From Eukaryota sp. GEM-RC1 (taxonomy: Eukaryota): a stretch of 64,000 nt of DNA. Location of the stretch: positions 2,232,001 through 2,296,000 of the forward strand of contig JAUFOQ010000004.1 in the NCBI GenBank assembly GCA_040285855.1. The letters run 5' to 3'. The notes below the pieces were generated by a model that did no database searches, was not told where the DNA came from, and saw only the letters and a list, made by a program, of their open reading frames with translations. A program made the position numbers and the translations under genes. Within the stretch, counting starts at the first letter, position 1. Every line of letters starts with the position of its first letter. Positions 1-56,939 of this stretch are shown in pieces.

Positions 1-298
1 CCTTTTGCAGTTTCTTTGTACGGAAATTTTGGTTCTTCTACCAAGGAGTTCTTAAAAATATTTGAAAATTTGTGTTCAGAATTTGGCAAGAAGTTTAACA
101 GATCGTACTGGAAGAGTAGATTTGCTTTTTCGATTTTTAGGTCTATGTATAGATATGTTGATTCCATTTTGTCCAAGTTATTTGGAGGCAACTACTTTTC
201 GGAATTAGGTAGTTCGTTTGATAATTTGATTTAATAGTGTTTATTTATTTGTTGTTTTCTTATTATGTGTTTTTCTCCGCACATAAATCCGTTTTTTT
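1..298 (+). mobile_element. 3' end of an RLE-type (CRE-like) non-LTR retrotransposon, family A
   Basis: Translation PFAVSLYGNFG...YWKSRFAFSIFRSMYRY..ILSKLFG is homologous to the endonuclease tail at 32703-32972. It ends in CATAAATCCG-T7, like the copies ending at 33029 and 35552. Confidence 0.8.
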
Positions 299-1728
299 AT
301 ACTCCACAATCATTTGTTGTTTGTTTCTGTAGCACTGGAACAATAATGAGCTGAAACTCGAGTTGATGAAGAATTTCATGTATTTTTGAAATATCTTGAT
401 TCAAATAAGAGTCACTTTCCTTTAAGTTTTATCAACATCCTGTCTGTGATCTCCAACATCATAAAGAGGATCGAGGAATATCACTTGTAGATCCTTTTTA
501 TCAATTACAATCAAACCCAATGTAAACCAGTCATTGCATCATTTATAGGAAGAAAAAGATATCTAAAATCTGTCTGAAGAATCTTGTTCATGAAAAACTC
601 GTGAAGAGATTGGGTTTCATCAACTAAATATGATTGAATAGATCCAGGAGTTACAAAGGCATTGAAATCAGCTTTGTATATGTCCATCAAATGACGAGAG
701 TACCAATTAACACATTCTTCTGCAATCGATTCTTCAGATGACAACGATTTGATTGCTTCCGAAACCTCTTGTAATTGAGTTTTTGTCAGTTTATTAGAAT
801 TTGAATCTGGAATTTCATCAGTAGATGACATCAGTCTAGAAGGTTCAGATAAATCAGAAGTATCGGCAGTCTTCTTTCTTTTTTTGGCTGGTTGTTTAGT
901 TTTAGGACCTTTTTTCTTTCTTGCATCAGATTTTTTGAATTTATGACGTTGTTGAGAAGGTGTCGAATGAACTGAAAAGTGTTTTTTAAGATTTGTCCAG
1001 CACGTTTAGCCCTCTCTGCTGATTGAGTAGATATAGTATGAGTCAAAACTGCTTTCCTCATTTTTAGAGCATCATAGTCTTCGTTAGTTACGAGTTTGGC
1101 TGAAATTTCTTAAAAAACCATAGATGAACAATCAATAGATGAGTCTGTCAGGCAACAAACTTTTGAATGTACATTAGAATAAAAGGTCCACAGTCATTTT
1201 TAGTTTGCTCTTGCTTTACAACTAGTTTATCCATATACAAATAATTTGCGTCATTAAATAAATCTTGCTGTAATTTTTGGACTACTGTTTCATTGCGAGA
1301 AGTTCGAATTGTATTCGCCAGTTGTTTGAAGTGTTCCTCTTCAGTATACGTTGAGTCGATTAAAAAAAGTCGTCTGATCTTAATATCGCAAATTAGAAGT
1401 GTCCAATGAGTCGGAGTTTTACCGAAAAGGCCATCGTTGATTGGCATGAATATGAATCGTTTCTTCGGAACACAATTATTCATTGATGTTATTAGGTATT
1501 CGAATTTTTTTAATAATAGTTGAAAATCATAAACACCAGAAGAACCAAGCATGTCATTGATTGGAAAGAACTGACAACAACATGAAGTGCTGCTTTTAGT
1601 TAGAAAATGACGGTATAAGTCGATGACGTCATCATTAACCAGACGTTGGGCTCTAATGTGTCGATATTGTCTACATTTGGAGCAGGAACGGGTCTCAGTT
1701 GCTCATCTGTGAGGTCATCTGTAGGAGG

Positions 1729-1790
1729 AGGTCCTGGATTGGATTCTATGTCTCCGTCCGTGGTTAGGTCATGATAGAACTGAGACGATT
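1729..1790 (-). other. 2A / StopGo ribosomal-skipping peptide
   Basis: QFYHDLTTDGDIESNPG|P matches the D(V/I)ExNPGP consensus; the core GDIESNPGP is at 1729-1755. Confidence 0.85.
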
Positions 1791-1931
1791 GTTGATTTAT
1801 TAACACATGAAGGGATATGGGGACCGATGCAAAAATATCACAGCAACAACAGCAAATGAACAAAAGTACGACCATGAGGGTTTTAAAAATCGTTGCAGCA
1901 TCGCCAATGACCGAGCGTAAAACAAACAAAA

Positions 1932-2292
1932 TTGAAGTACATCTGGGGCCACTAAGGACCCGCGACATACTTCGTGTTAAGAACTGATGTTCTTACGAGA
2001 GTACAAAAGACAGAGGAAGATGAGAAAGAGTTGAAGTACATCAGGGGCCACTAATGACCCGCGACGTACTTCGCGTTAAGAACTGATGTTCTTTCGAGAG
2101 TACAAAAGACAGAGGAAGATAAGAAAGAGTTGAAGTACATCTGGGGCCACTAATGACCCGCGACGTACTTCGCGTTAAGAACTGATGTTCTGTCGAGAGT
2201 ACAAAAGACAGAGGAAGATAAGAAAGAGTTGAAGTACATCTGGGGCCACTAAGGACCCGCGACGTACTTCGCGTTAAGAACTGGTGTTCTTT
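1932..2292. repeat. 99-bp tandem repeat, ~3.6 copies (33-aa unit on the minus strand)
   Basis: GGGGCCACTAA recurs at 1945, 2044, 2143 and 2242. The unit translates as EHQFLTRSTSRV(L/I)SGPRCTSTLSYLPLSFVLS(T/K). Confidence 0.95.
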
Positions 2293-2349
2293 CATAATTT
2301 GAGATAGGTTAAGAAGAGATGTGAAAGATATTTCAAATATGGATTCACA

Positions 2350-2358
2350 CTATTTATA
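2350..2358 (-). promoter_or_regulatory. TATA-like box upstream of the 2A/Ulp1 ORF
   Basis: Minus strand reads TATAAATAG about 55 bp upstream of ATG 2295. Confidence 0.35.
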
Positions 2359-2427
2359 GATGTTGTCTACAGTGACATCTTGACATTATGACATCTTCTT
2401 CATATGTTATTGATTCTATTAAATGTA

Positions 2428-2485
2428 TTCAACATTTGTAACAACAACATTTGGTAATACAACATTTGTAACAACAACATTTGTA
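2428..2485. repeat. Short tandem repeat, AACATTTGTAACAAC-like, ~4 degenerate units
   Basis: aacatttgtaacaac / aacatttggtaatac / aacatttgtaacaac / aacatttgta. Confidence 0.7.
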
Positions 2486-3062
2486 GAAGACTATGAGATA
2501 TACTGAAATGTACTGATACAATAAAAATCGCCATTTGTTTACTCTTACAAATACAAACTTTCATCGATATTAACAAATATGATACATGTACTAATACCTC
2601 AAATCAATAAAATCTGATCTGATCTAATATTTTATAGAATAGAAACAACAACAGAAAACCAATCACCAGTCTCTGTCCAACCTCCAACTCTAATAGCCTG
2701 AAGATAACTATTTGCTTATCTCATCGAATGAATTCTTTGTTTATTTGTATAAAGATCCTAACCCAATACATGTTCTTTAGTTGGTACTGCTGATTTTGTT
2801 GGGTACAATCACATTCAATGTAGCATGGATGTTATTAACTCTACAACTGTGTTCAAGACTGTCGATCAGGACTTAGAAGTGTAGTGGATCTACTATTTGT
2901 GAGTCACACATGTCATGGTTCTTAAAGAGAACCCATATAGGATGATCATAATAACGATCAAATTTGAACGAGTATTATTCAAGAAATAGGTCTTTTGAAC
3001 TCATAACAGGTTCAATCTAAACACCGTGTTGTACTAAATTAGTGAATATCACAAAGGACGAT

Positions 3063-5111
3063 TCATTTTTTATAATCTAAAAGGAACGTACGGTCTTCAA
3101 TCAAATCAGTCAATTCTGGGTACTTAGCTCTTAAGTCATTAATAACTTCCTGCAGCCACGTTTCCATCTTCAAGGTCCTCTCTCTTCTCTCATCAAATAG
3201 TCTGTAATATGCTTTATGAGCAATTGCATAAGCTTTGGTCTTTATATAGTCTTCAATGGTATCCAAGTCATTTAATATTTCTGCTCCCTTGTTTTCAGTC
3301 ACAAGTGTCCATTGTTTATATATATTATTGATAGCATCGTTTAACGCTCTAAATTTCGTGAAATCCGTTAACGGGTCACCGCAAAAGAATGTTTTAACAT
3401 CAGGTAGGACAAAATCAGGTATATGTTCAATCTTCACATTTTGATAAGATGGACGTGTTTCAGCTGGAAACACGTTGTCGAACTGGGCTTTCAGACGGGT
3501 TGAGGAACCTATAGAGAAGATAGAATCAATAAGAGGGGAATCGTTGTTCTTACCAGAAGACTGTTGTGGAGCAAACACAGCAGGAAAGGTATCGTCATCA
3601 TTTTTGATTGTAGAGTTCATAATGATTGAGTGGCACGTCACTAAACCAATGATAAATGTAGCAAACCTTTTGTATTGTAGTACTCTAAGACAAGGGATCA
3701 CAACACTTGCCCAAGTACTAATAATAGTTGCTGGTCCCTGCAGTGAACCTTGATGACGTTGGTCCATCATTGTACTAGTTATCAAATCCACTAACTGTTG
3801 CAACTGGTCTGGTTCATGCATTGAAATCCATGGAAGAGGGATTTGATAATGATCTCTTATAGACAAGACAGCTGATTGACTGTGAGATTGAGAGTTTCCC
3901 TCCTCGTCGTGAGTGAGGTTGATGACGATACGTCCTCTCCCAAACCATTTAGTTCCAATTCGATGAAGATAGGTGGCAAAATCAACAGACCCATCTTGAT
4001 TAAAAGGTAAATCATAATTGATTACAAAGGCAACGTGACGCATATCGATTTCACGATGCAGACCATCAGTAGCAATCAAAACTTGAAGCTGTTCCCCAGT
4101 AAAAGCAGTAATTACTTCGTCTCTGTTTTCAACTTCACCAGTCAATAGTCCACATTTTAACCCAAACCATTTAGTGAGATCAGAATGTAACTTGATGGCT
4201 TGGTCCGTAGTTGACACGAAAATAATGGCTTGACCAATGGAGAAATAGTTCTTCATGAGATTTACAAGGAGATTTATTGTTCCATCTTCGGAACAAGTGT
4301 TGAGTGCTGTTTGTAGAATACATGAATGTGGAAGATCGTCCTTCTTCATAATGATTTTGGGACGCCTTGTTGGCTTGTTAGCAATTTCGAAGTAGTAATT
4401 GTGGTGTGCTTCAGGGTAAGTTGCTGAGAAGAGGAGTCGTTGGCAGGAATCAGGGAGAAGTTGGTGTATATGATCTAGGGTTTTGTCTTCATTAAGCAAT
4501 TGATCAGCTTCATCCATAACAAAGACGGTGATGGTTTCTAGGGAGAGTTCCTTGTTCTGGATGAATTGTTGGATGTCACAACAAGTTCCAATGATGACGT
4601 GAGCATGTCTGGGGGATGTCACAATGTTTTCTTTGTTATGGACAGAATCTGCTCTTGGTTCTCTGTATAGAGGACAAATATAGATAGCTGGTTCTGTATG
4701 TTTGACTAGAGTGGTGAACAGTTTGAAGATACCATGGGAATTTTGAGGAGATGAAGTAAGAACAAGAATTTGAGGAACTGAGATGGATCGGTCAACTTTC
4801 ATCAAAGAACAAAGTGCACAAGCCAGGGTTTTACCAGTACCACTTTGTGACTGAACAATACAGCTGGTAGGTGGATCGTCCATCACATTTGAAATCAACT
4901 CAGCTTGAATCTCGGTAGGATTGATGAATCGAAGATCATCTTTAACGGCTCTAAGAAGATCTTCAGATACACCAAGTTCTTCGAAAGTGTAATCAGATCG
5001 ATTTAGTCGTGTGTATGTGGAGTAGAGATCAGAATCAGCGCAAAGATCTGATGCTTTTCCAGTAGGTTTAAAGGACTGAATAAGTTTCTCAAACTGTTGT
5101 TTGTTTGTCAT
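3063..5111 (-). CDS. DEAD-box RNA helicase, Dbp5/DDX19-like, degenerate, with a C-terminal extension
   Basis: Q motif PTEIQ, QSQSGTGKT, DEAD, SAT, IGQAIIF, VINYDLP, YLHRIG. The likely start is MTNKQQ. Confidence 0.8.
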   Translation of the reverse strand: MTNKQQFEKLIQSFKPTGKASDLCADSDLYSTYTRLNRSDYTFEELGVSEDLLRAVKDDLRFINPTEIQAELISNVMDDPPTSCIVQSQSGTGKTLACALCSLMKVDRSISVPQILVLTSSPQNSHGIFKLFTTLVKHTEPAIYICPLYREPRADSVHNKENIVTSPRHAHVIIGTCCDIQQFIQNKELSLETITVFVMDEADQLLNEDKTLDHIHQLLPDSCQRLLFSATYPEAHHNYYFEIANKPTRRPKIIMKKDDLPHSCILQTALNTCSEDGTINLLVNLMKNYFSIGQAIIFVSTTDQAIKLHSDLTKWFGLKCGLLTGEVENRDEVITAFTGEQLQVLIATDGLHREIDMRHVAFVINYDLPFNQDGSVDFATYLHRIGTKWFGRGRIVINLTHDEEGNSQSHSQSAVLSIRDHYQIPLPWISMHEPDQLQQLVDLITSTMMDQRHQGSLQGPATIISTWASVVIPCLRVLQYKRFATFIIGLVTCHSIIMNSTIKNDDDTFPAVFAPQQSSGKNNDSPLIDSIFSIGSSTRLKAQFDNVFPAETRPSYQNVKIEHIPDFVLPDVKTFFCGDPLTDFTKFRALNDAINNIYKQWTLVTENKGAEILNDLDTIEDYIKTKAYAIAHKAYYRLFDERRERTLKMETWLQEVINDLRAKYPELTDLIEDRTFLLDYKK

Positions 5112-5483
5112 TATGCCAGGAAGATTATTGGAGAATTTCAATTTGCAAAAATGACCGAAAAGCACTCATAAGATTGACTGAGGGTAACTACACGTACATG
5201 TTTTTTTCAATTTCAAAGAAGAGTTTGGTTCATTGTGGATTGAAGAATTCTTTAAGAAGTATGGAGGTTCTGATAAACAATGGTTTGTCAGCGTATTTGT
5301 TTTTGGCGAAGCTGAAAGGACATTGGGCTTTTCATTTTTGAATTGAATTGATGTACATGTGTACGTCGGAATAACAGATTCAGCTTATCAATTTGGCAAA
5401 TATTCCATGATGCTTGTCACTGTACCAATCGAATCGATGACCAATTTTATTGAGCCAAATACTGTATCACAAAGTGTAAATGT

Positions 5484-5896: not shown

Positions 5897-6900
5897 GTAA
5901 AAGTTGATCTATGATTTTATTGTTTTTCAGGGACTTGTGTCAAGTTGTGTGAGTTTATTGAAACACCCAACTGCCTTTTATTGTATAATATAATTTTTAA
6001 TGAAAGGAATGAAAGATAAATAGTTGATAGATGAAGGGGACCAAAATACATATCAAAAACAACTGTAAAACACTAGACACAAAACACTCCTGGTCAACAC
6101 TACCACAGTTCTCATACAACTTCGTGATAATTGGAAAAAATGATGTGCTTGTAAATCATCAAAGAATGAGAAATGATGAGTGAACACTTTGTCAGTCAAT
6201 GTCGAAGATCACAAATACCATTGATACCGCAGGGGTCCGTCTCTTTTGGTAACAATAGACAAAAGCGATCCACTTTTGAATGTTCTATATATATTAACCA
6301 ATATGCAAAATCAAAATATCTTTCAGACAGAAAGCGTCTTGCTTCTGAGTAACAATTTGCAGTATGTCCAGTTTCTAAAACGGGATTGTATGTCTTCTTC
6401 AGATTCTGATGAAGAATTCTCGAGATCTGCAATTCCAAAAACCTATTTCAAAATGAATATAAGGGTGGAACCAATCTTAACAAAGTGCGTTCTCGTAGTG
6501 TTAAGCCAGATGACAAAATAGAAGCAACACCTTTAATTGACCTACCTCTAAAAGTTAAACCAAAATCTAAAAGTTCCACACTGTTAGTACTCGATATAGA
6601 AACTTAAGATGACATTGATGAAGGAAGTTTTGTCGTTCCGATTGTCATGATTAGGTTTTTCTTTTTGTCCTTTTAAAAACGAAAAGCTTTTTAATGCGGA
6701 AAACTATGCGTTTAGCGTTGGAAATGTTACTGCAGTAGAGTCTGTCAGAAAAATTAAAAGTAATATTTTTTCATTTATATCTGAGTCTCATTTGATTTCG
6801 AGTTTCCTTCATTTTTTTAATTCATTGTCACCAGATTTTGTGTCAGGTTTCTATTCTGAGATCTGTTGTTATCTACTATACTACCATCACTCATGAAGTT

Positions 6901-7455
6901 ATGGCAGACAATGTGATCTCATACACTTTTCTTTCAGCCTCTTGGAACTCAACCATCTCTCATAAATTTGGCAATTCCACTTCCTTAGACTACTGTTCTT
7001 TTGCCAGGAAAAATTTAACTTCCAAATTTGGCAACAGTCTAAACAGTGTTTCCTTAAGTATTTTAGCTGAAGGAAAATTTAAACTCAGCAAATCATATTC
7101 TACTCTAACGGAAACGGCTGAAGGAAGAGCTGAATTAGCCAATCACTGCATGAAAGATGTAATTCTAACTTTAAAACTTTTTTCAGTTTTTCAAAGACCT
7201 AATCCCAATGTTCATAAATCAGATGAATTCTACAAAGTGCTAACAGAAATCAGCCGTAACGTGAACGCTGTGTTAAACATGATTCATATTGTAGATGAGC
7301 TTGTTAGAGGAAATGGTAGTGCGGAAGTTTTGCTTCTAGTACACAATTTTCTCATTGATCTAACCAAGTCACTATTATTTGACATTGGTAAGCTATTAAC
7401 TGATGTCCAAGATCACAAAAGCACATCTTCTTCATTGGATATCACAGCTCTCTAA
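6901..7455 (+). CDS. Hypothetical protein (~184 aa)
   Basis: Open ORF from MADNV with protein-like composition; overlaps the next gene by 53 bp. Confidence 0.5.
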   Translation: MADNVISYTFLSASWNSTISHKFGNSTSLDYCSFARKNLTSKFGNSLNSVSLSILAEGKFKLSKSYSTLTETAEGRAELANHCMKDVILTLKLFSVFQRPNPNVHKSDEFYKVLTEISRNVNAVLNMIHIVDELVRGNGSAEVLLLVHNFLIDLTKSLLFDIGKLLTDVQDHKSTSSSLDITAL

Positions 7456-10563: not shown

Positions 10564-10928
10564 GAGGGATCGAAAAAAATAAATTGTATCGCAATACATT
10601 GAAATATATTATGTTGCAATAAATATTGCACTCTTTTGATGCGCAATATATTTATTGCAACAAAGGATTTATTGCAATACTTCACAACGAGATTTATGCA
10701 GAGTAACTGTAACAAGTTTTGTTCGTAAGAACACTTTCTTTCACTGTATGTCCACTCCAAGTCCAAATAAGTTAAAAGGGGACCTACAGTTGGTTTCTAC
10801 ATCTCTATTGTCATCACTCAACACATACTCCAAGTAATGAGATTTGTGGAAACTGGTACATGTGTTATTTACGAATCAATAAAGACACGACCCGCATCCA
10901 GCAATACAATTTATTTATTTCGATCCCT
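10564..10928. mobile_element. hAT-like MITE; uninterrupted sibling of the element at 35850-44016
   Basis: TIRs AGGGATCGAAAAAAATAAATTGTAT / ATACAATTTATTTATTTCGATCCCT. The interior matches 35850-35981 plus 43846-44016. Confidence 0.8.
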
Positions 10929-10953
10929 TTTAGGTGTACTTATAACTCATCTC

Positions 10954-11740
10954 ATGACAGAAAAATTCTCCATCGGACAACAAAGCTACGATGTAATGAA
11001 CCGGCATATATACGTTGATAAAACACGCCATCTGGTTGAACTTGCTCAAGATGAGTGTCCTTTCTGTTTATCAAGGCCTGGTCGAATTGGCAAATCTCTC
11101 CTTACCTCTACACTTTCAAAGCTCTTTGCTGGAAATAAGGACTTCTTTGAGAATACATTTGCATACAAGAACTGGGATTGGAGTACCACCTATCCAGTCA
11201 TTCATCTTGACTTTAGTGGTTGCTCTATCTTTTCTCGAGAAGAATTGAGACATGACCTTCTATCTAAGATCACTGCTGTTGCTAAACCTTATGGTGTTTC
11301 TTTTCGAACTGATGTTACACCTCACGATGCTTTGTCTATTCTCATCGAAACGCTATCACTGAACACCTCTCTCCCCGACGACCGAGTTGTTCTTCTTATT
11401 GATGAATACGATGCACCGCTTTTAGACGCCCTCAATTCTCCTATATTTGAGGAAGTGAAACAAGTCATGAGTCCAATCTTCAATGTCATTAAGAGTGCTG
11501 ACGAATATTTGCGATTTACTTTTTTAACGGGAGTGACTCAATTTTCAAAGTCGAGTTTGTTTTTGGTTTAAACAGTGTAATTGACATTCCACTGAATCCT
11601 AAGTATGCTTCAATAACTGGCTTCGCACGTGAAGAAATTGAACAACACTACCCCAAATTTATCGATGAAGCAATGTCAAAACTGAACACAGAGAACCAAT
11701 TTTGGGAAAAGTTTTAAAAATACTATATTGGATAGGTATT
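10954..11740 (+). pseudogene. Bacterial-type AAA-ATPase-like protein (AAA_PD-(D/E)XK nuclease family), truncated
   Basis: YVDKT, LSRPGRIGKSL (cf. RPRRFGKSL), YPVIHLDFS, LLIDEYDAP, FLTGVTQFSKSSLF; after a frameshift GLNSVIDIPLNPKYASITGF, then stops. Confidence 0.8.
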
Positions 11741-17399: not shown

Positions 17400-18375
17400 A
17401 GTTTGAAGTCTAAGTGGAATAATAGATGTTATATATTATATACATACGACATGTTCTCGTCTAGTGGACTTACGCGTAATCATCTACCAGATAACGATGA
17501 CAATGAGTGGATTTAGTGTTAGTCGAGTATTACTATTAGTTCCAGTGTCTATTTTTGTTTTGTTTGAGTTCAAATTTGTGTGGCAAATTTACTTTTGGCT
17601 AGTTGAAAAAATTGATTACATGTAGTATGCGTTTACGGTCATATATTTGGCCTGATAACCTTCCACATAATTTGAAATGCCAATGTGGGCAATCTGTAAC
17701 ACCTACACATTTATTGAATTGTAACCGTTATATTTCTTTTAGAAGTAAGGTTCATGATTCAGTAAGGGATCAATTATATTGTATGTGTAAATTTTATGGA
17801 ATAGTTTCCTTTTTAGAACCAGTTCTGGCTGGTTTGTTTGATGATACGGATGTTGACAAATCGTTTGGAAATAGCCGTGGTGATGTCATATCTCCTGGTC
17901 TCGATGGATCTTTCATTATTGCTGATGTTATGTCTATCGATGTTTGTAATGATTGCAACAAAAAACTTGCTAAATTTAATGCTAAAAAACCCTTGTTGAT
18001 TGGTCAAAAATTTAAAATGGAAAAGTATTGTGCTAAATTGAAATTATTGAATTCAGTTTCACACTCGAATTACTTGTTGTACCCTTTTGTATTTTGGCTG
18101 TACGGTTCTTTAGTTGAATCTGCAACATCATTACTTGAAATCTTTGTGAAGATTGTAAAAGAAAAAACATCTAGGACTTTTGATCTTAGATTTTGGAAAA
18201 GTCGAATTGTGTTTGCTATCTTTAAAGGTATGGTGACTTCTGTATCTAGCGCTATATTATCTCTTGGCAGACATTATGAGGATAAGGTAGAAGAGAATTT
18301 CCAGTTAGGCAATCTGGACTTTGAGGATATTGATTATTAGATGTATGTACACTGTAGTGTTGTTACAAAAAAATA
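17400..18375 (+). mobile_element. RLE non-LTR retrotransposon 3' fragment, family B
   Basis: MRLRSYIWP, CQCG..HLLNC, HDSVRD, LEP, RGD, ADV, K..KY, YPFVF.LYGSL, FWKSRIVFAIFK (CCHC finger plus PD-(D/E)xK endonuclease). Confidence 0.85.
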
Positions 18376-18507: not shown

Positions 18508-21500
18508 CTAAGAACAGCTACTACCGATACGGATTCCCCAAGAAGAATTTGTTGGGGGATGCTTCTTGTGGTGTCTTTCTTTCCACAAGACTTGTTGCTC
18601 AAGGTCTATCTTCAGACATTTCACTTCCCGATCCTTGGCTTTTAGTTGAGACTCGAGATTTGAATTTAATGAGACAAGTTCCTGTAATTTAGATTCAAGT
18701 TCTTCACTAGAAGAATTCTTCAAAGCATGGATTTCACTGGACAATTCAGTATTAATTACTTCCTTCTCTTTTAGTTGAGACTCGAGAGTTAAATTTGAAG
18801 CGACAAGTTCCTGTAATTTAGAATCGATTTCCTCGTTATTAGAATTCTTCAAAGCTTGAATTTCACTGGACAATTCAGTATTAATTATTTCCCTCTCTTT
18901 TAGTTGAGATTCGAGAGTTGAAGTCAAAGCGACAAGTTCCTGTAATTTAGAATCTATTTTCTCGTTAGTAGAATTCTTCAAAGCTTGGATTTCACTGGAC
19001 AATTCAGTATTAATTACTTCCTTCTCTTTTAGTTGAGACTCGAGATTTGAATTTAAAGAGACAAGTTCCTGTAATTTAGATTCAAGTTCTTCACTAGAAG
19101 AATTCTTCAAAGCATGGATTTCACTGGACAATTCAGTATTTATTACTTCCTTCTCTTTTAGTTGAGACTCGAGAGTTAAATTTAAAGCGACAAGTTCCTG
19201 TAATTTAGAATCTATTTCCTCGTTAGTAGAATTCTTCAAAGCATGGATTTCACTGGACAATTCAGTACTAATTATTTCCTTCTCTTTTAGTTGAGATTCG
19301 AGAGTTGAAGTCAAAGCGACAAGTTCCTGTAATTTAGAATCTATTTTCTCGTTAGTAGAATTCTTCAAAGCTTGGATTTCACTAGACAATTCAGTATTAA
19401 TTACTTCATTCTCTTTTAGTTGAGACTCGAGAGTTAAATTTAAAGCGACAAGTTCCTGTAATTTAGAATCGATTTCCTCGTTATTAGAATTCTTCAAAGC
19501 TTGGATTTCACTGGACAATTCAGTATTAATTATTTCCTTCTTTTTTAGTTGAGATTCGAGAGTTGAAGTCAAAGCGACAAGTTCCTGTAATTTAGAATCT
19601 ATTTTCTCGTTAGTAGAATTCTTCAAAGCTTGGATTTCACTGGACAATTCAGTATTAATTACTTCCTTCTCTTTTAGTTGAGACTCGAGATTTGAATTTA
19701 AAGAGACAAGTTCCTGTAATTTAGATTCAAGTTCTTCACTAGAAGAATTCTTCAAAGCATGGATTTCACTGGACAATTCAGTATTAATTACTTCCTTCTC
19801 TTTTAGTTGAGACTCGAGAGTTAAATTTAAAGCGACAAGTTCCTGTAATTTAGAATCGATTTCCTCGTTATTAGAATTCTTCAAAGCTTGAATTTCACTG
19901 GACAATTCAGTATTAATTATTTCCCTCTCTTTTAGTTGAGATTCGAGAGTTGAAGTCAAAGCGACAAGTTCCTGTAATTTAGAATCTATTTTCTCGTTAG
20001 TAGAATTCTTCAAAGCTTGGATTTCACTGGACAATTCAGTATTAATTACTTCCTTCTCTTTTAGTTGAGACTCGAGAGTTGAAGTCAAAGCGACAAGTTC
20101 CTGTAATTTAGAATCTATTTCCTCGTTAGTAGAATTCTTCAAAGCTTGGATTTCACTGGACAATTCATTATTAATTACTTCCTTCTCTTTTAGTTGAGAC
20201 TCGAGATTTGAATTTAAAGAGACAAGTTCCTGTAATTTAGAATCTATTTCCTCGTTAGTAGAATTCTTCAAAGCTTGGATTTCACTGGACAATTCATTAT
20301 TAATTACTTCCTTCTCTTTTAGTTGAGACTCGAGATTTGAATTTAAAGAGACAAGTTCCTGTAATTTAGATTCAAGTTCTTCACTAGAAGAATTCTTCAA
20401 AGCATGGATTTCACTGGACAATTCAGTATTTATTACTTCCTTCTCTTTTAGTTGAGACTCGAGAGTTAAATTTAAAGCGACAAGTTCCTGTAATTTAGAA
20501 TCTATTTTCTCGTTAGTAGAATTCTTCAAAGCTTGGATTTCACTAGACAATTCAGTATTAATTACTTCATTCTCTTTTAGTTGAGACTCGAGAGTTAAAT
20601 TTAAAGCGACAAGTTCCTGTAATTTAGAATCGATTTCCTCGTTATTAGAATTCTTCAAAGCTTGGATTTCACTGGACAATTCAGTATTAATTATTTCCTT
20701 CTTTTTAGTTGAGATTCGAGAGTTGAAGTCAAAGCGACAAGTTCCTGTAATTTAGAATCTATTTTCTCGTTAGTAGAATTCTTCAAAGCTTGGATTTCAC
20801 TGGACAATTCAGTATTAATTACTTCCTTCTCTTTTAGTTGAGACTCGAGAGTTAAATTTAAAGCGACAAGTTCCTGTAATTTAGAATCTATTTCCTCGTC
20901 AGTAGAATTCTTCAAAGCTTGGATTTCACTGGACAATTCAGTATTAATTACTTCCTTCTCTTTTAGTTGAGACTCGAGAGTTAAATTTAAAGCGACAAGT
21001 TCCTGTAATTTAGAATCGATTTCCTCGTTATTAGAATTCTTCAAAGCTTGAATTTCACTGGACAATTCAGTATTAATTATTTCCCTCTCTTTTAGTTGAG
21101 ATTCGAGAGTTGAAGTCAAAGCGACAAGTTCCTGTAATTTAGAATCTATTTTCTCGTTAGTAGAATTCTTCAAAGCTTGGATTTCACTGGACAATTCAGT
21201 ATTAATTACTTCCTTCTCTTTTAGTTGAGACTCGAGAGTTGAAGTCAAAGCGACAAGTTCCTGTAATTTAGAATCTATTTCCTCGTTAGTAGAATTCTTC
21301 AAAGCTTGGATTTCACTGGACAATTCAGTATTAATTACTTCCTTCTCTTTTAGTTGAGACTCGAGAGTTGAAGTCAAAGCGACAAGTTCCTGTAATTTAG
21401 AATCTATTTCCTCGTTAGTAGAATTCTTCAAAGCATGGATTTCACTGGACAATTCAGTATTAATTACTTCCTTCTCTTTTAGTTGAGACTCGAGAGTTAA

Positions 21501-24500
21501 ATTTAAAGCGACAAGTTCCTGTAATTTAGAATCTATTTCCTCGTCAGTAGAATTCTTCAAAGCTTGGATTTCACTGGACAATTCAGTATTAATTACTTCC
21601 TTCTCTTTTAGTTGAGACTCGAGAGTTAAATTTAAAGCGACAAGTTCCTGTAATTTAGAATCGATTTCCTCGTTATTAGAATTCTTCAAAGCTTGAATTT
21701 CACTGGACAATTCAGTATTAATTATTTCCCTCTCTTTTAGTTGAGATTCGAGAGTTGAAGTCAAAGCGACAAGTTCCTGTAATTTAGAATCTATTTTCTC
21801 GTTAGTAGAATTCTTCAAAGCTTGGATTTCACTGGACAATTCAATACTAATTATTTCCTTCTCTTTTAGTTGAGATTCGAGAGTTGAAGTCAAAGCGACA
21901 AGTTCCTGTAATTTAGAATCTATTTCCTCGTTAGTAGAATTCTTCAAAGCATGGATTTCACTGGACAATTCAGTACTAATTATTTCCTTCTCTTTTAGTT
22001 GAGATTCGAGAGTTGAAGTCAAAGCGACAAGTTCCTGTAATTTAGAATCTATTTCCTCGTTAGTAGAATTCTTCAAAGCTTGGATTTCACTGGACAATTC
22101 AGTATTAATTACTTCCTTCTCTTTTAGTTGAGACTCGAGAGTTGAAGTCAAAGCGACAAGTTCCTGTAATTTAGAATCTATTTCCTCGTTAGTAGAATTC
22201 TTCAAAGCATGGATTTCACTGGACAATTCAGTATTAATTACTTCCTTCTCTTTTAGTTGAGACTCGAGAGTTAAATTTAAAGCGACAAGTTCCTGTAATT
22301 TAGAATCTATTTCCTCGTCAGTAGAATTCTTCAAAGCTTGGATTTCACTGGACAATTCAGTATTAATTACTTCCTTCTCTTTTAGTTGAGACTCGAGAGT
22401 TAAATTTAAAGCGACAAGTTCCTGTAATTTAGAATCGATTTCCTCGTTATTAGAATTCTTCAAAGCTTGAATTTCACTGGACAATTCAGTATTAATTATT
22501 TCCCTCTCTTTTAGTTGAGATTCGAGAGTTGAAGTCAAAGCGACAAGTTCCTGTAATTTAGAATCTATTTTCTCGTTAGTAGAATTCTTCAAAGCTTGGA
22601 TTTCACTGGACAATTCAGTATTAATTACTTCCTTCTCTTTTAGTTGAGACTCGAGAGTTGAAGTCAAAGCGACAAGTTCCTGTAATTTAGAATCTATTTC
22701 CTCGTTAGTAGAATTCTTCAAAGCTTGGATTTCACTGGACAATTCAGTATTAATTACTTCCTTCTCTTTTAGTTGAGACTCGAGAGTTGAAGTCAAAGCG
22801 ACAAGTTCCTGTAATTTAGAATCTATTTCCTCGTTAGTAGAATTCTTCAAAGCATGGATTTCACTGGACAATTCAGTATTAATTACTTCCTTCTCTTTTA
22901 GTTGAGACTCGAGAGTTAAATTTAAAGCGACAAGTTCCTGTAATTTAGAATCTATTTCCTCGTCAGTAGAATTCTTCAAAGCTTGGATTTCACTGGACAA
23001 TTCAGTATTAATTACTTCCTTCTCTTTTAGTTGAGACTCGAGAGTTAAATTTAAAGCGACAAGTTCCTGTAATTTAGAATCTATTTCCTCGTCAGTAGAA
23101 TTCTTCAAAGCTTGGATTTCACTGGACAATTCAGTATTAATTACTTCCTTCTCTTTTAGTTGAGACTCGAGAGTTGAAGTCAAAGCGACAAGTTCCTGTA
23201 ATTTAGAATCTATTTCCTCGTTAGTAGAATTCTTCAAAGCTTGGATTTCACTGGACAATTCAGTATTAATTACTTCCTTCTCTTTTAGTTGAGACTCGAG
23301 AGTTGGAAGTCAAAGCGACAAGTTCCTGTAATTTAGAATCTATTTCCTCGTTAGTAGAATTCTTCAAAGCATGGATTTCACTGGACAATTCAGTATTAAT
23401 TACTTCCTTCTCTTTTAGTTGAGACTCGAGAGTTAAATTTAAAGCGACAAGTTCCTGTAATTTAGAATCTATTTCCTCGTCAGTAGAATTCTTCAAAGCT
23501 TGGATTTCACTGGACAATTCAGTATTAATTACTTCCTTCTCTTTTAGTTGAGACTCGAGAGTTAAATTTAAAGCGACAAGTTCCTGTAATTTAGAATCGA
23601 TTTCCTCGTTATTAGAATTCTTCAAAGCTTGAATTTCACTGGACAATTCAGTATTAATTATTTCCCTCTCTTTTAGTTGAGATTCGAGAGTTGAAGTCAA
23701 AGCGACAAGTTCCTGTAATTTAGAATCTATTTTCTCGTTAGTAGAATTCTTCAAAGCTTGGATTTCACTGGACAATTCAGTATTAATTACTTCCTTCTCT
23801 TTTAGTTGAGACTCGAGAGTTGAAGTCAAAGCGACAAGTTCCTGTAATTTAGAATCTATTTCCTCGTTAGTAGAATTCTTCAAAGCTTGGATTTCACTGG
23901 ACAATTCAGTATTAATTACTTCCTTCTCTTTTAGTTGAGACTCGAGAGTTGAAGTCAAAGCGACAAGTTCCTGTAATTTAGAATCTATTTCCTCGTTAGT
24001 AGAATTCTTCAAAGCATGGATTTCACTGGACAATTCAGTATTAATTACTTCCTTCTCTTTTAGTTGAGACTCGAGAGTTAAATTTAAAGCGACAAGTTCC
24101 TGTAATTTAGAATCTATTTCCTCGTCAGTAGAATTCTTCAAAGCTTGGATTTCACTGGACAATTCAGTATTAATTACTTCCTTCTCTTTTAGTTGAGACT
24201 CGAGAGTTAAATTTAAAGCGACAAGTTCCTGTAATTTAGAATCTATTTCCTCGTCAGTAGAATTCTTCAAAGCTTGGATTTCACTGGACAATTCAGTATT
24301 AATTACTTCCTTCTCTTTTAGTTGAGACTCGAGCGTTGAAGTCAAAGCGACAAGTTCCTGTAATTTAGAATCTATTTCCTCGTTAGTAGAATTCTTCAAA
24401 GCTTGGATTTCACTGGACAATTCAATACTAATTATTTCCTTCTCTTTTAGTTGAGATTCGAGAGTTGAAGTCAAAGCGACAAGTTCCTGTAATTTAGAAT

Positions 24501-26736
24501 CTATTTCCTCGTTAGTAGAATTCTTCAAAGCATGGATTTCACTGGACAATTCAGTACTAATTATTTCCTTCTCTTTTAGTTGAGATTCGAGAGTTGAAGT
24601 CAAAGCGACAAGTTCCTGTAATTTAGAATCTATTTTCTCGTTAGTAGAATTTTTCAAAGCTTGGATTTCACTAGACAATTCAGTATTAATTACTTCCTTC
24701 TCTTTTAGTTGAGATTCGAGAGTTGAAGTCAAAGCGACAAGTTCCTGTAATTTAGAATCTATTTTCTCGTTAGTAGAATTCTTCAAAGCTTGGATTTCAC
24801 TAGACAATTCAGTATTAATTACTTCCTTCTCTTTTAGTTGAGACTCGAGAGTTAAATTTAGAGCGACAAGTTCCTGTAATTTAGAATCGATTTCCTCGTT
24901 ATTAGAATTCTTCAAAGCTTGGATTTCACTGGACAATTCAGTATTAATTATTTCCTTCTTTTTTAGTTGAGACTCGAGAGTTGAAGTCAAAGCGACAAGT
25001 TCCTGTAATTTAGAATCTATTTCCTCGTTAGTAGAATTCTTCAAAGCATGGATTTCACTGGACAATTCAGTACTAATTATTTCCTTCTCTTTTAGTTGAG
25101 ATTCGAGAGTTAAATTTAAAGCGACAAGTTCCTGTAATTTAGAATCGATTTCCTCGTTATTAGAATTCTTCAAAGCTTGGATTTCACTGGACAATTCAGT
25201 ATTAATTATTTCGTTCTTTTTTAGTTGAGACTCGAGAGTTAAATTTAAAGCGACAAGTTCCTGTAATTTAGAATCTATTTCCTCGTCAGTAGAATTCTTC
25301 AAAGCTTGGATTTCACTGGACAATTCAGTATTAATTACTTCCTTCTCTTTTAGTTGAGACTCGAGAGTTGGAAGTCAAAACGACAAGTTCCTGTAATTTA
25401 GAATCTATTTCCTCGTTAGTAGAATTCTTCAAAGCTTGGATTTCACTAGACAATTCAGTATTAATTACTTCCTTCTCTTTCAATTGAAGATGTTTGTCAT
25501 CTTTTAAAGTAGAGATTTGTTTTTTACACTTTTCCAGTTCCATTGTCAACTCTTTGGTCACTTTGTCCTTTTGAAGTAAATCACTAGGGTCTAAAGCAGA
25601 AGTCAGGCCAGGAAACCAAGTTGCTCTACGGTTAGTTGTTTTGGCCTGACCTGTTCCATCAAAAGCGCGCTGATTCAACATCAATTGTACATTTCTTTCT
25701 TTTAGTTCTTCAATTTCTCTTTCGTACTTCTTGAGTAAAGCTCTATCATCTAAAACTTCATTAACTTTAGCCTTATTCTTGACATTCTTTGCTCTAGTAG
25801 CAAACTCTAGAGTTGTTCTACTTACTTCAAAGTGGTGAAAAGCTGGAGTTATACAGCATATGATGGCTGTTCGTGAGTTTCCACCGAGGGCGTTCTTCAA
25901 CAGAAATGTAAGCTTGGAATCTCTGTAATTGATATGAGCACGTGAATTTGACTGTAACTTAGCAATTAAAGTTCCCAAGTAAAGTAAACTTTTGTTAATG
26001 TTCGAAGTTTCCCGTAGTTGAGTTCCTTTTGCTCCTGTTTGAGAGGCTCTTTCAGATCCAGCTAAATCAACCAAATTCAAGTGAGAAATTCTTACAGCAC
26101 CATCACTATCTTTCGAATTTTCCTGGGATTCCAGAATAATTTTAAAAATCGAATGTGATCTCGATGATCGATCATTCATTTTTGTCTGACTGACACGTTT
26201 TCTTTGATTACCCTTTTTAGTTGTTCCAGAGCTTCTTCAACTGACATGACAACGTATTCGAGAGCATTACAGAGATTCACGTTTTCTTGGGTTTCTGTAA
26301 TAAAGGGTTTGTTCTTGGGTTCTAGGAGATCATAGACAACTTCATTGTAGATTTCAATAAATGACACTCTGCAGAGATATCGGCGGTGTGAACAGGCCTG
26401 GATGTGGTCGAAGATCTGGTGTAACGTGAGGTGCACTAGGCCTGGGTCAGACTTGGTACCCATGATTGTGTGTGTTTTGCCTGAGGAAGTCTGTCCGTAA
26501 GCAAAGATTGTTCCATGAAAGCCGTTGATAACATCTAGGACGACGGGAGAGGCAAAAGACGTGTAAAGTTCTGAGTTAGAGCATTGTTGATCGAAGACAT
26601 GATCGAAGTGATATGAATGCTTCAAGTTTGCAGTATAAACAGCATTACTAGTGGTGTGGAAGAGACCGTGGGACTCAATCCCAAAGAGATTCCGAACTCG
26701 GACTGCAACTAGAATGCCGGCGGTTTGTGGCGCCAT
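18508..26736 (-). CDS. CENPE: CENP-E-like kinesin-7 with a tandem-repeat coiled-coil stalk (~2740 aa if 4 indels are corrected)
   Basis: Motor motifs FAYGQTSSGKT, NDRSSRSH, LVDLAGSE, HINYRDSKLT, then the CENP-E-type RRATW motif after the neck. Frameshifts at ~26215, 25370, 23305 and 20700. Confidence 0.85.
18630..25480. repeat. 129-bp coding tandem repeat (43 aa), ~53 copies
   Basis: Unit ELSSEIQALKNSTNEEIDSKLQELVALTSTLESQLKEKEVINT; period 129 (e.g. 18714 to 18843). Confidence 0.97.
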
Positions 26737-26808
26737 TTTATTGTGCAAAATTTGCTTTTCACACTGTTCTTCATTCGTTTTACATCCATTTCAGCCATCG
26801 GTGGCTAC

Positions 26809-26828: not shown

Positions 26829-27059
26829 CTAGACACATGGTTCCGGTGGACTCCTGCACCGATGACGATCACATCCATGTTCCAGATACTGTTGGTTTCA
26901 CCAACCTGTCCTTATCAGAGTCTGTACAGGTTCTCTTCAGAAGATGTGGGAGCTACCATTAAACGAGTTTTCCTTTATGATTTCATGAACTTTTTCCCTC
27001 TGAAATTTGGTATATGTGTCTGTCATCTCAGCAGTTCTCTACTTATTTATGGTGAACGT

Positions 27060-27670
27060 GCTTCTTTTTTTCGTGTTTAAAACACATGGTTTTCACTAAA
27101 GTTGACCCTGTTTTGAATCACTTTTCAGGTCCAAAAGAGGGACTCCGTGGCTTAAATCGAGTCAATCGTTAATGAATTTTACCACAGTAGATGTTTGGAT
27201 CAAGTCGTGTCTTGTGTCGATAGGATATTAGATTCTTGTTTAAATCCGTTAACATCTGCTGAAGAACTCATGCATTCCAAATATGACTTTCAAGCAGAAG
27301 ACTTAAACCGAAAATCATACTCAAAATTTGTGTTCGATACTTTTGTTGTTTCACTTTTTTGGGTCGATTAGTCCTGCAGGTGAACAATTTTGCAAGGTTT
27401 TTGATGAACTGTGTAATGAAAAGAAGCGTAAGTTTAGAATGTTTGAATTGAAACCCGTATTGTGGTTTCCGTTTATCGGAATATGCCTTTCAATTTCTCT
27501 CGGTAAGTTCAGAAACTGTACAAGTTTGGTGTGAAAAGTAATGTCAAAAAACGTAATCTTTTACCGGATGGGAATGAAGTCTTTTGGATTTTGTCATAGA
27601 ATTATTTGTTTTTTTTAAAATTAACATTTGTAAGAAGGTTACAATTTTGGATACAAAATAAAGTTTCATC
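27060..27670 (+). mobile_element. Degenerate RLE non-LTR fragment, family C
   Basis: Nucleotide and protein similarity to the reverse complement of 55200-55830 (KRGD, NFTTVDV, AEELMHSKY, SLFGSISPA, KKRKFRM). Confidence 0.75.
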
Positions 27671-30502: not shown

Positions 30503-31499
30503 ATGTATTGAGACCAGGAAATGAGGATTTCATTTTGCTCTACTGTACTAGAAAGAACTACATGTAGCTTCACTTCAACTCAATGACTGGTTATAATCAG
30601 ACAGAACTCCAACTCGATGAAACTTGGTATGTTTCGGAGTTAAGTCAACAGTCGACTTTGAGACTTGGCTGGAGTTGTTACCGTCTCTACACAATTTATA
30701 GTCTCACATATCGATATGTGACCACTGTTTGTATGGATAATGACAATTAAAAAAAATTTATGTTATCTGGGACGGTATTCTGATTACCACAAAGTCATTG
30801 AAAATAATCAGTAAATTAAGATAATAATCATTGAAATTTTATGGCATGTTCTTGGCATGTACAAAGCGGTTACTAGAAACAACTTGAAATACCGAAGAAT
30901 TACTAAGAATGTTCTGAACCATCCAATGTCGAGTTTAAATTGTTCATAATATCTGATTTTGAAAGTGGCTTCTTAAACTACTCTGACATTGGTATGTGTT
31001 GAGACTTCCATTCCAAACTCATAATCACGCAGTAAAAACTTCTTTGAAAAGAAGGAAAGTCACACATGACTAGGCTCAACAATCAAAAGACATTGACCCA
31101 GTCAAAATACGTAGAAAACTACAACTACAACTGCGTCATCCCCAATGTTTTTGCAATCAAATTTTTAGTGAAGTCTGAACGGAACGGAATTGGAGATACA
31201 GAAGCACCCACAGTACATTGGAGCGGTAAACTAAACCAACGAACTTCTTTTTTTGGTTTTTAAAAACGGAATTGAATTTAGATGTATTTTAAAAAAGTGA
31301 AATGAGATCTTTCTGGAACTTGTTTGCAATACAAGCTATGAAACACTGGACACAGAAAATTACTGGTCAACACTACCACAGTTCTTACACAATCCAAAAT
31401 CTTTGAAGTATGTGACGAAGAACTTAGACAACAAGCATATTTCCTACATTTTCTGTTGACTTGTGTTCTCGTTATTCAGGTCAATGTATCGCTATTTTG

Positions 31500-33029
31500 A
31501 CGGGATTTTGGCCAAGTTATATGGGAATAACTATTCTGTAGATTTGGGGAGCCCTTGGAGTACTTTAATTTAGTTTGTGTTTTTGTTAATGTTCTAGATA
31601 TGTTTTTGACCATAAAGCCCCTTTTTTCTGTCCCTTTCCTTTTTCTTCTTTTGACTCGTTTGGTCAAAAAGCCATAAAATTGCTGCAATGATTGGACGGC
31701 GTGGTAAAACAGCATTGCAACAAATCTTTCAATCAAAGTTATTGGACGAACAGATTGGTATTTTCTGTTTTCAAGGCTATTCCTCAGATGTAGAAAAGAA
31801 GTCTGATTTCATGAAGCGGAGAGAAATTCTAAAATGTAAATTTGTTTCTTCATGAATATAAACTTGATTATGAAAATGTCTTCAATTTTTTCTAGAGACA
31901 CGACACAATGGATAAGCAACAGATCAACAAGAGAGCTATTAGAGTTGTTGATTGTTTGTGTAGTATCTCTTCACTATTCGAAGATTCCCCTTGACAGAAC
32001 CAAGAAGTTCTTTGGACTAAGTTCCAAACGAAAGTTGATTTTTAAAACTAAATAGAAACGCATTTAGATGAGGTTATCTTTTGATTAAGATAAGTGTATA
32101 CGTGATGACCGTTGAGTAGAGGGATAAAGACGTGACCAAAGGAACAACACAGACACACTGTCTTCTTGTTTAATCGTGGTCTACTGTTGAAAAGAAGTTT
32201 TGCTAAGTGAAGACATAAACCTAGAATGTTACATGTTTTTCTCGTTTTCGAAGAAAATTTTGTTTTAATCTTAAGGATCATGAATGTCTTATAAACATGA
32301 GACTTAGGTTAGGTTTATGGCCTTCAGGTCTTTTGAAGCATTCTCCATGTCTTTGTGGTCGTTCAAAGGCTTCAAATTTTCATCATTTAGTTAACTGTCA
32401 TCAATTTATTCATTTTCGATCAATTATTCACAACAGTATCCGGGATATATGTTTGGATATCTTTAAAGCTAATGGTGTTCATGGAAAAATTGAACCTTTA
32501 CTTGCTAATCTTTCTGATCAGCCAAAAGTTGATAGAAGTCGTGGTGATTTGATTGGTCCTTGGTTATCTTGTCAGGAAATTATCATGGATTGTTGATCCT
32601 TGTAATTCAAGATCAATTTCCAAAATTTTTGATGATGATTTTTCTGCTCTTGAAGTGGCTGAAAAAGGAAAAAATACAAAGTACTGTCACTGAATTAAGC
32701 AATTGAATGTTGACAGGTACAATTCTTATGTGTTTCAACCTTTTGCGATGTCGATATACGGTAATATTGGACCAGCTGCAGAAGGTTTTTTAACTTCCTT
32801 TGGTATAATGTGTTCTGAGTATGGTAAAGTGTTCAATGAAAATTTTTGGTTGAGTAGGTTAACGTTTGCGTTGTTTCGTTCAATGCACAGATACTTTAAT
32901 TCAATTTTAGGTAAGTTGTTCGGTGATGGACAGAAGGATCATAGTTTAGATACTTTAGTTAGTGTCTGTTAGTTATTAACTTCTGCAAATGCATTTATTT
33001 CACTGACTGATCATAAACCCCGTTTTTTT
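31500..33029 (+). mobile_element. Degenerate RLE non-LTR retrotransposon, family A; 5' boundary uncertain
   Basis: MRLRLGLWP, CLCG..HHLVNC, HNSIRD, IEP, RGD, FQPFAMSIYGNIG, FWLSRLTFALFR; ends CATAAACCCCG-T7. Confidence 0.8.
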
Positions 33030-33058
33030 GTAAGTTGCTTTCTGTTTAATCTACAAAT

Positions 33059-35115: not shown

Positions 35116-35552
35116 TGTTGATCCTTGTAATTCAAGATCAATTTCCTAAAATTTTGATGATGATTTTTCTGCTCTTGAAGTAGCTGAAAAGGAAAAAATA
35201 CATAGTACTGTCACTTAAATAACCAATTGAATGTTGACAGGTACAATTTTGTTGTGTTTCAACCTTTTGCGATGTCGATGTACAGTAATAATGGACCAGT
35301 GCACAAGGTTTTTTAACCTCCTTTGGTAAATTATGTTCTGAGTACGGTAAAGTCTTCAATGAAAATTTTTGGTTGAGTAGGTTAACGTTTGCGTTGTTTC
35401 GTTCAATGCACAGATATTTTAATTCAATTTTAGGTTAGTTGTTCGGTGATGGACAGAAGGATCATAGTTTAGATTCTTTAGTTAGTGTCTGTTAGTTATT
35501 AACTTCTGCAAATGCATTTATTTCACTGACTGATCATAAACCCCGTTTTTTT
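35116..35552 (+). mobile_element. 5'-truncated copy of RLE non-LTR family A, with TSD
   Basis: Near-identical to 32591-33029. Flanked by AAACGACCCCA (35105-35115) and AAACGATCCCA (35553-35563). Confidence 0.85.
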
Positions 35553-35981
35553 AAACGATCCCAAGGCCTTCTGAGAGGAATAAGTCCTGATGGTCTTGAA
35601 GTGTTCAAATGCTTAAATGATTCTTCCAATTAGTTGACCTCAAGGTGTTTGATCTATTTGATCGATCTTTTGCCAACATCTTTCCATCTGCACCAGATTA
35701 AGTAGAAGAGTACTACAACAAAGAGTCCTCAATTAGCTGCTGATGAATGATTAAACAAAAGCTCAGTGAACGTCTTTTTCATGTTATGACGTGTGAAACA
35801 AAAATTGTTTTTTAAATCATTGCAATTATTTATTGTTGAGTTGATGATACAGGGATCGAAAAAATAAATTATATTGCAATATGTCACAACGAAATATCTG
35901 CAGCGTAAATCTAACAAGTCTTGTTCATAAGAACACTTTCTTTTACTGCACGTCCACTTCAAGTCCAAAAAAGTTAAAAGG

Positions 35982-43841: not shown

Positions 43842-44456
43842 AAGGGGACCTACAGTTCGGTGTCAAACCCCTATTATCATCACTCAACATCAACATACAC
43901 ATACTTCCAAGTAATAAGATTTGTGGAAACTGGTACATGTGTTTATTTACGTATCACTATAGACACGATCCAATCATAGTGCACCCATCAATACAATTTA
44001 TTTTTTTCGATCCCTGGCCAGAGTCTATACCAGGAAGCGTGAAGTGTTGAAACATAGTAGGTGGAGCTGTAATGAACGTGGTATACGTACATAACGAATC
44101 GCTAAAAAGTTCAAACACGTGTGTACATCACATCATAGGAACCGATGAAGTTAACAAGTATTGATATCAACAAAAGAGCAAAGTAAAAAGATCAGTTGTG
44201 AAGTCTGAGCGTACGTTATGATCAGAAGAGGTGTCAAGCTTTACTGTACGTTAAGGAGTAAAATGAATGTTCTTATGCATGTATCTGAAAGGGAAAATAA
44301 GCGTTGGTTTTCAGTCAGCAAGTTTCAGCAAAACATCTCAATTTTCTACATTTTCACAGACCAAATTTTACCCAAAATATTGCAATATATTGCAATTATT
44401 TATTGCAATCATCACATTTTCCAATATATTTATTGCAATGATCACAATTTCCAATA

Positions 44457-45095: not shown

Positions 45096-45227
45096 TATAT
45101 TTATTGTACATTTTTTATGCTAGAAATATATTGCAATATATTTTTTCGATCCCTGTATTGATACGGCAATAATTGATTTTTCTTTGTTCAGAAGAGATAT
45201 ACGGTATCTGATACTTTTCTTACAACA

Positions 45228-56866: not shown

Positions 56867-56939
56867 GGCTATTGGCTATTGTTAGTGTCATGACTCATCA
56901 GGACCTATTTGTATAATAAATTCACTTTTCTCTATTCAT

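Follow-up and report, generated by a model that had tools for sequence, protein, structure and literature searches.

The window, as we call the whole 64,000-nucleotide stretch of Eukaryota sp. GEM-RC1 DNA that was analyzed, carries near its left end a minus-strand gene whose predicted product combines a repeat-bearing leader, a 2A/StopGo motif, and two protease domains of the Ulp1/SENP family. Read in the direction of translation, the leader consists of an ATG at 2295 and 3.7 tandem 99-bp repeats of 33 codons each (1932 to 2295 with the ATG, 1932 to 2293 for the repeats themselves), in frame with the 2A motif and starting 188 codons ahead of the skip site. These are followed by a hydrophobic, Cys-rich stretch (1822 to 1878), the 2A motif (1729 to 1770), the first protease domain (1151 to 1650), a linker (800 to 1150), and the second protease domain (298 to 800), all on the minus strand. 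Comparison with paralogs indicates that only the 5' half of one copy of a multicopy gene is present in the window, in damaged form; whatever remains of the other half would lie past the left edge. The gene is cut by the 3' terminus of another repeated element. This piece, on the plus strand (1 to 297), comprises the end of an ORF (1 to 234) and a T-rich tail that terminates in CATAAA-N4-poly-T; it interrupts the second protease domain at about 298, on the opposite strand. From its motifs we take this element to be an RLE-type non-LTR retrotransposon; a longer relative of it gave no Pfam or PDB match. At least eight RLE-like 3' fragments, including this one, are present in the window (1-297, ~17600-18360, 27050-27660, 31450-31610, 32590-33030, 35120-35550, 51880-52600, and 55190-55840), and among the eight related ends compared, four share the CATAAA-N4-poly-T terminus rather than ending in poly-A on the coding strand. 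A reading in which the plus-strand ORF at 1 to 234 and the protease gene form one element with overlapping stop codons was dropped, because the paralogs continue beyond ~298 and the plus-strand piece carries the 3' tail of its own family.

The remainder of the window contains a variety of cellular and mobile genes. No long ORF lies at 2295 to 3060, beyond which a DEAD-box helicase frame (3063 to 5165, minus strand) has about 186 extra C-terminal residues (3063 to 3620); these gave no PHROGs or NCBIfam match, nor any Pfam match within the full ORF, and may represent a separate gene just upstream of the element. A bacterial-type AAA-ATPase_like gene (10771 to 11571, plus strand; PF09820, E 3e-45) has partial copies near 35870-36070 and 43755-44015. 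At 18632 to 26790 (minus strand), the gene of a motor that we presumptively label kinesin-like by its motifs precedes an array of 53 tandem 129-bp repeats whose product is a very long coiled coil, and at 45177 to 47714 (plus strand) lies a protein whose parts we take, again from motifs, to be RING, kinase, and Sel1-like repeats, with 11 tandem 108-bp repeats. A Ty3/Gypsy-like LTR retrotransposon with protease, RT, RNase H, and integrase, bounded by terminal repeats of ~80 bp, occupies 56877 to 61914 (plus strand), and an internally deleted copy of it is found at 37305 to 38934 (plus strand).

Searches for relatives of the interrupted gene returned 65 proteins, namely, 45 from Eukaryota sp. GEM-RC1, 17 from Eukaryota sp. 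TZLM3-RCL (hereafter RCL), the window product itself (P0006), and two that were set aside: P0013, a 5956-aa repeat protein with a spurious match, and P0016, a distant Ulp-like protein. The counts given below thus refer to 63 gene models, 46 of the GEM type and 17 from RCL. Behind the two species labels are the free-living metamonads described as Skoliomonas sp. GEM-RC and sp. TZLM3-RCL in PMC11316075, a paper whose main text lacks the words "retrotranspos" and "viral". In each species, the contigs that bear the models have eight different lengths. Most of them are fragments, with six ending at one common point and eight at another, which is consistent with recurring frameshifts. Most RCL copies are 95 to 98% identical to one of the models, P0055. 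Between the species, identity is 49% over the end of the exonuclease and the Fanzor region described below, 32 to 39% over the linker and exonuclease, and about 25% over the protease. Scans of viral and metagenome contigs, with a reach limited to close relatives, found no further members, and phage records gave no match to the family.

Protease domains and condition of the window copy

The first protease domain matches Peptidase_C48 (Pfam E 6e-9) and retains the catalytic triad, with the His in a THW motif (1411 to 1394), the Asp in LIDS (1363 to 1349), and the Cys in NDCG (1201 to 1184). The second, detected with a profile of our own (E 3e-16 to 8e-7 on its pieces), has its His, Asp, and Cys motifs at 528-517, 478-464, and 317-300, respectively, and in the window is cut just past the last of these. 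Within the linker between them, a basic stretch at 918 to 871 has a composition that suggests a nuclear localization signal (NLS). Over both proteases, the window is about 90% identical to the paralog P0004 and colinear with it, without need of an intron. Five frameshifts, all in the same direction (~1637, ~1150, ~985, ~514, and ~428), and three stops (2043, 1995, and ~1112) mean that the window copy, as assembled, cannot make the polyprotein. Three of the five frameshifts sit in runs of three to six identical bases, which suggests that they are long-read assembly errors.

The initial annotation had described a SUMO-protease domain after the 2A motif, with a Ulp1 WLND motif about 30 codons downstream. 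The tryptophan in question, 31 residues past the skip site, is real, but WLND as such spans the frameshift at ~1637: the 2A frame reads PNVWLMMT..., NDDVIDLY lies in another frame, and the paralogs P0003 and P0004 have WVND where the window seems to give WLND. Likewise, a protease of the predicted family with its triad is present, but there are two such domains, and the matches do not single out SUMO as the substrate. By profile, Ulp1 (3e-13) and SENP8 (2e-12) are tied, and the matches of single sequences would favor the deNEDDylase SENP8/NEDP1, which was the sole protease among the PDB matches of P0055 alone at E<=0.01 and the best match of the window domain (E 0.085). The number of protease domains varies, being one in RCL models and two in GEM subfamilies (P0004, P0030, and P0055 compared), and the second domain of the window is only 28% identical to the first. 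This combination suggests that protease domains have been shuffled among subfamilies, albeit with weak support from a tree in which three of 10 branches were well supported and which was not relied upon (P0016 entered the analysis solely as a row of this tree). Self-cleavage of the polyprotein at di-glycine sites between domains was considered and rejected, as GG is absent from P0004 and, in P0055, confined to the protease.

The 2A/StopGo motif and its leader

The 2A/StopGo motif, DLTTDGDIESNPG followed by the proline at which translation would resume, belongs to the DLTxDG class and recurs in most paralogs that cover its site. Its core, DLTTDGDIESNPGP, is encoded at 1770 to 1729 on the minus strand within an open frame at 1992 to 1600, with the predicted skip site falling between the G (1734 to 1732) and the P (1731 to 1729). 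The viral-type 2A peptide noted by the initial annotation is thus present, and a six-frame search of the window gives no second match to the pattern D(V/I)ExNPGP, for which residue frequencies predict 2.8e-5 occurrences by chance. The class assignment made there is also borne out, as DLTTDG-DIESNPGP has the D at p12 and the S at p15. A viral example of this class, which is the StopGo upstream motif 4 of PMC12846837, skipped almost 100% in lysate according to that paper; the window motif fits this class but sits in protist nuclear DNA. The residues ahead of DLT are more variable, being F-Y-H in the window, F-L-R in subfamily B, and W-K/E-K in the RCL copies. Among 65 distinct viral-class motifs, collected by pattern scans from 61 viral and 48 metagenome DLTxDG loci, 28 have a W at -3 and 47 have R/K at -1. 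The RCL copies with W-x-K match this viral pattern; the F-Y-H of the window departs from the W-V-R/K usual in viruses, which makes the skipping efficiency of the window 2A uncertain. Further, PMC3708506 describes the core motif alone as insufficient and several transposon 2A-like sequences as weak or inactive.

Conservation of NPGP among paralogous copies, on which the initial annotation had made its claim depend, was observed: the core is canonical in 12 of the 14 gene models that cover the site, the exceptions being P0022 (NLGP) and P0055 (DIHPNAGP). Across six subfamily representatives, 10 to 14 positions of the 14-residue core are identical, as compared with 2 to 15 of the 40 residues upstream (10 subfamily pairs of sufficient length) and 6 to 13 of the 30 residues downstream, where one close pair reaches 23. 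We regard the window motif as a genuine 2A-class sequence with predicted skipping activity. As the core is kept between subfamilies with unrelated leaders, skipping would likely strip a disposable leader.

The leader itself is repeat bearing, as had been claimed, although two in-frame stops, both substitutions, fall within the repeats of the window copy (2043 and 1995). In the paralog P0003, which is 91% identical to the window over the leader and 2A, the equivalent repeats are open and in frame. Tandem repeats are found in the leaders of different subfamilies, and their sequences are unrelated to each other. The hydrophobic segment predicted before the 2A motif is present at 1878 to 1822 (Kyte-Doolittle 2.66 over 19 residues), but it exceeds the expectation from T-rich DNA only modestly, its hydrophobicity being reached by 2.2% of 2000 stop-free shuffles, a value uncorrected for the selection of this segment. 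Initiation at an in-frame ATG at 1875 would yield a signal-like peptide of 48 residues, the last being the 2A glycine, and P0030 and P0062 share with the window this layout of ATG, hydrophobic stretch, and 2A. In the 12 copies compared, leader hydrophobicity peaks at values between 0.13 and 2.66, with P0008, P0009, and P0021 at 0.13 to 1.09. The membrane targeting suggested for the leader is possible but is not a conserved property of a region whose sequence is unrelated between subfamilies.

Relatives and the exonuclease-Fanzor1 region

Everything beyond the second protease lies outside the window and is known from automatic gene models. In P0004, the order is 2A, protease, protease, linker, and the beginning of a DNA_pol_B_exo1 domain (Pfam E 1.6e-11). 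P0004 ends with the 31 residues that begin P0037, and the latter supplies the rest of the exonuclease and then, in the same frame, a DUF8286/Fanzor region. The junction between the Exo III motif and the Fanzor N terminus, which begins ~27 residues past Exo III, is seen in six of 46 GEM-type and eight of 17 RCL models. No polymerase domain stands behind the exonuclease, this place being taken by the Fanzor N terminus, and a reading of the DNA_pol_B_exo1 match as a full family B polymerase was dropped on the same account. The 1571-aa model P0055, which alone is full length, covers the 2A site, one protease domain, the exonuclease, and Fanzor in a single protein, with PDB matches to SpuFz1 (E 1e-22), PpFz1 (2.5e-20), the Pol delta exonuclease (8.7e-6), and SENP8 (5.6e-6); Pfam, PHROGs, NCBIfam, and PDB searches found no RT, polymerase, or transposase domain in it, and its entire length is taken up by the other parts named. 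P0062 has a canonical 2A and a complete Fanzor and lacks the linker and Exo I; since the 2A of P0055 is degenerate, no single model is entirely intact.

Both species have the Exo I, II, and III motifs, and the RuvC-I D and RuvC-II E align with those of SpuFz1, the E standing six residues before a zinc finger, as PMC13565253 describes for Fanzors. At the third RuvC position, each of the 13 models extending that far has N (two further pattern matches lying inside the exonuclease were left out of this count), giving a D-E-N triad. Such a triad is active in GtFz1, and the substitution D606N raises the activity of SpuFz1, as stated in PMC11423790. The RCL models thus combine homology to Fanzor1 with the characteristic succession of RuvC D, E with the C4 finger six residues on, and R-D/N. 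The GEM-type models have only the N-terminal part of Fanzor with RuvC-I, none of the 46 reaching RuvC-II or RuvC-III in a search whose length range left short C-terminal pieces outside. AlphaFold models of P0038 had mean pLDDT values of 32.9 and 31.8, and an Atlas search with the whole of P0038, covering clusters of at least 50 members, gave a score of 0.76 and no exonuclease-Fanzor cluster. Within the window, the Fanzor profile found no piece, and Rfam on 1 to 3300 returned a single chance-level match (U7, E 0.51) and no evidence of a ribozyme.

A stand-alone, frameshifted exonuclease-like gene is also present in the window at 6390 to 7455 (plus strand). Its Exo I reads LVLDIET, its Exo II is degenerate, and HCMKD stands at Exo III; the gene is 38% identical over 92 aa to the exonuclease of the element (profile E 1e-12), and is not followed by Fanzor; it could be the host donor of the exonuclease domain or a domesticated piece.

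These observations alter the picture of what follows the skip site. RT-RLE, transposase, or viral genes had been proposed downstream, and none was found; instead, the proteases of the relatives lead into exonuclease and Fanzor1. By virtue of this fusion and of the basic, NLS-like linker at 918 to 871, the protein after the 2A motif is most likely nuclear, rather than the free cytosolic deSUMOylase envisaged in the initial annotation, and skipping would likely remove the disposable leader from a nuclear nuclease.

Possible origin, proposed mechanism, and significance of the element

Each part of this protein is known from some mobile element. With the Fanzor1 proteins of elements that have no transposase (Spu-1/SpuFz1, PDB 8GKH; PpFz1, PDB 9CF0; GtFz1), the family shares the RuvC-I D, the RuvC-II E six residues before the C4 zinc finger, and the WNR-x RuvC-III; like those elements, it is multicopy and has a single ORF, with the D-E-N triad of GtFz1, but P0055 adds ~880 N-terminal residues made up of leader, 2A, protease, linker, and exonuclease. 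APE-type non-LTR elements (L1Tc, Ingi, Rex1, L2, CR1, and Crack) similarly have a 2A-like motif near the polyprotein N terminus (PMC3708506), whereas the family has neither APE nor RT, its motif is of the DLTxDG class, and its payload is protease, exonuclease, and Fanzor. The RLE retrotransposons NeSL and Utopia-1_TSP carry a Ulp1-like cysteine protease at the head of their protein (PMC4640811); in contrast, the family lacks the zinc finger-RT-RLE succession and has one or two protease domains preceded by 2A. Mobile-element 3'-5' exonucleases are likewise known, in the form of DEDD enzymes, from P/piggyBac transposons (PMC3627910) and LTR polyproteins (PMC6338049), but the exonuclease of the family is of the PolB type (YxxxD, with Pol delta as the closest solved structure) and is fused to an RNA-guided nuclease. 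No report of 2A, Ulp1, exonuclease, and Fanzor together was found, nor any natural fusion of this kind in the available text of the Fanzor papers and 2A surveys searched by word, while the supplements of the Fanzor surveys and Repbase might contain something similar. Hence, the architecture, which the initial annotation did not recognize, does look undescribed in the literature searched.

The domain order, read from window DNA as far as the second protease and from gene models thereafter, the intact catalytic motifs, the conservation of 2A across unrelated leaders, and the dispersal of copies in two species are all apparent at the level of sequence. Taking these findings together, we propose, as the probable reading, that the damaged gene in the window is the 5' half of one copy of a dispersed, likely mobile Fanzor1 element predicted to encode a 2A-split protease-exonuclease-Fanzor1 polyprotein. 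A single gene would comprise the repeat leader, 2A, one or two Ulp1/SENP proteases, the basic linker, a Pol-delta-like exonuclease, and Fanzor1. Translation would begin at an ATG within the variable 5' repeats, with ribosomal skipping between the G and P of the 2A motif; one constant proline would thereby form the N terminus of the enzyme, irrespective of changes in the leader. The basic linker might then carry the enzyme into the nucleus, where Fanzor1 could load an omega-RNA from the 3' end of the element and cleave insertion sites that are still empty. Trimming of the cut 3' ends by the fused exonuclease might prevent simple religation, so that repair copies the element back (homing), and the protease may remove NEDD8 or SUMO from host proteins that act in silencing or repair. 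The 3' overhangs used by homologous recombination are not the product of a 3'-5' exonuclease, which makes the homing role the weakest step of this mechanism. To reach new loci, the element would most likely depend on a transposase provided in trans or encoded by a separate ORF; Spu-1 elements, too, are reported to be without transposase (PMC10432273). A bolder version, which we hold to be unlikely, is that the element is transposase free, RNA guided, and organized like a viral polyprotein, with the 2A motif freeing a protease-exonuclease-Fanzor that copies the element alone or with a borrowed reverse transcriptase.

Retromobilization and viral origin are, in our view, weaker rivals than a transposase acting in trans. 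On the former account, the family would be a retroelement derivative in which the 5' repeats, 2A, and Ulp1-like protease go back to a non-LTR element; it would have lost RT-RLE and gained exonuclease-Fanzor, with its RNA copied by the retrotransposons of the host genome. The N-terminal 2A and Ulp1-like domains of the non-LTR elements cited above, the abundance of RLE-like remains in the window, and the lack of a visible transposase would all fit; however, the RT-like YxDD motif is absent from all 63 models, no RT Pfam match was found in the models scanned, and the neighboring RLE-like piece is an opposite-strand insertion outside the element, so that we judge this origin unlikely. We consider it still less credible that the gene has survived from an endogenous large DNA virus or Polinton-like element. 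Such elements do have 2A, clan-CE protease, PolB pieces, and Fanzor, the 2A motif is mainly viral, and, among the top three Atlas clusters matched by the GEM Fanzor region, Nucleocytoviricota are the commonest taxon in two (score 0.98). Yet the exonuclease has no polymerase domain behind it, there is no capsid or packaging gene among the window ORFs read, the neighbors being the DEAD-box helicase and other cellular genes, and relatives are missing, within a reach limited to close ones, from viral contigs and phage records; the 109 same-class 2A loci also yielded no hit (0/109 at E<=0.01) to the protease, exonuclease, and Fanzor profiles.

Two further alternatives concern function rather than origin. 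With the polyprotein itself real, the 2A motif of the window subfamily might be a vestige that no longer skips, or the leader might be a signal peptide giving dual targeting, for which the nonconsensus upstream residues of the window, the degenerate motifs of P0055 and P0022, and the ATG-hydrophobic-2A layout in three copies could be cited, along with the sea-urchin 2A-signal sequences described in PMC4981915. We rate this as very unlikely, given that the core is canonical in nearly all spanning models while its flanks diverge, that some leaders are barely hydrophobic, and that a secreted DNA nuclease is hard to rationalize. That the family is a domesticated set of host genes for RNA-guided defense or gene control, and not a mobile element, strikes us as most improbable: the conservation of catalytic motifs between two species at 49% identity and the related stand-alone gene at ~6390-7455 would accord with it, but the models are mostly fragments on many contigs with near-identical young copies, and the window copy carries stops and an insertion.

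Fanzors are the RNA-guided nucleases of eukaryotes, and their role inside transposons is still being worked out. If the polyprotein proposed here is made by a mobile Fanzor1 element, its in-frame fusion of Fanzor1, exonuclease, and protease would show which partner activities selection has tied to cutting, the homing model could be tested directly by mutating each active site, and the fusion would offer a natural nuclease-exonuclease editor with a D-E-N triad. Were the transposase-free version true, the element would amount to a eukaryotic gene drive that spreads itself, processes the cut ends, and brings a protease directed against silencing or, alternatively, to a Fanzor moving through RNA. 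With the proposed element, StopGo recoding, known from RNA viruses and LINEs, would also have reached an RNA-guided DNA element, and this in a deep-branching lineage of protists.
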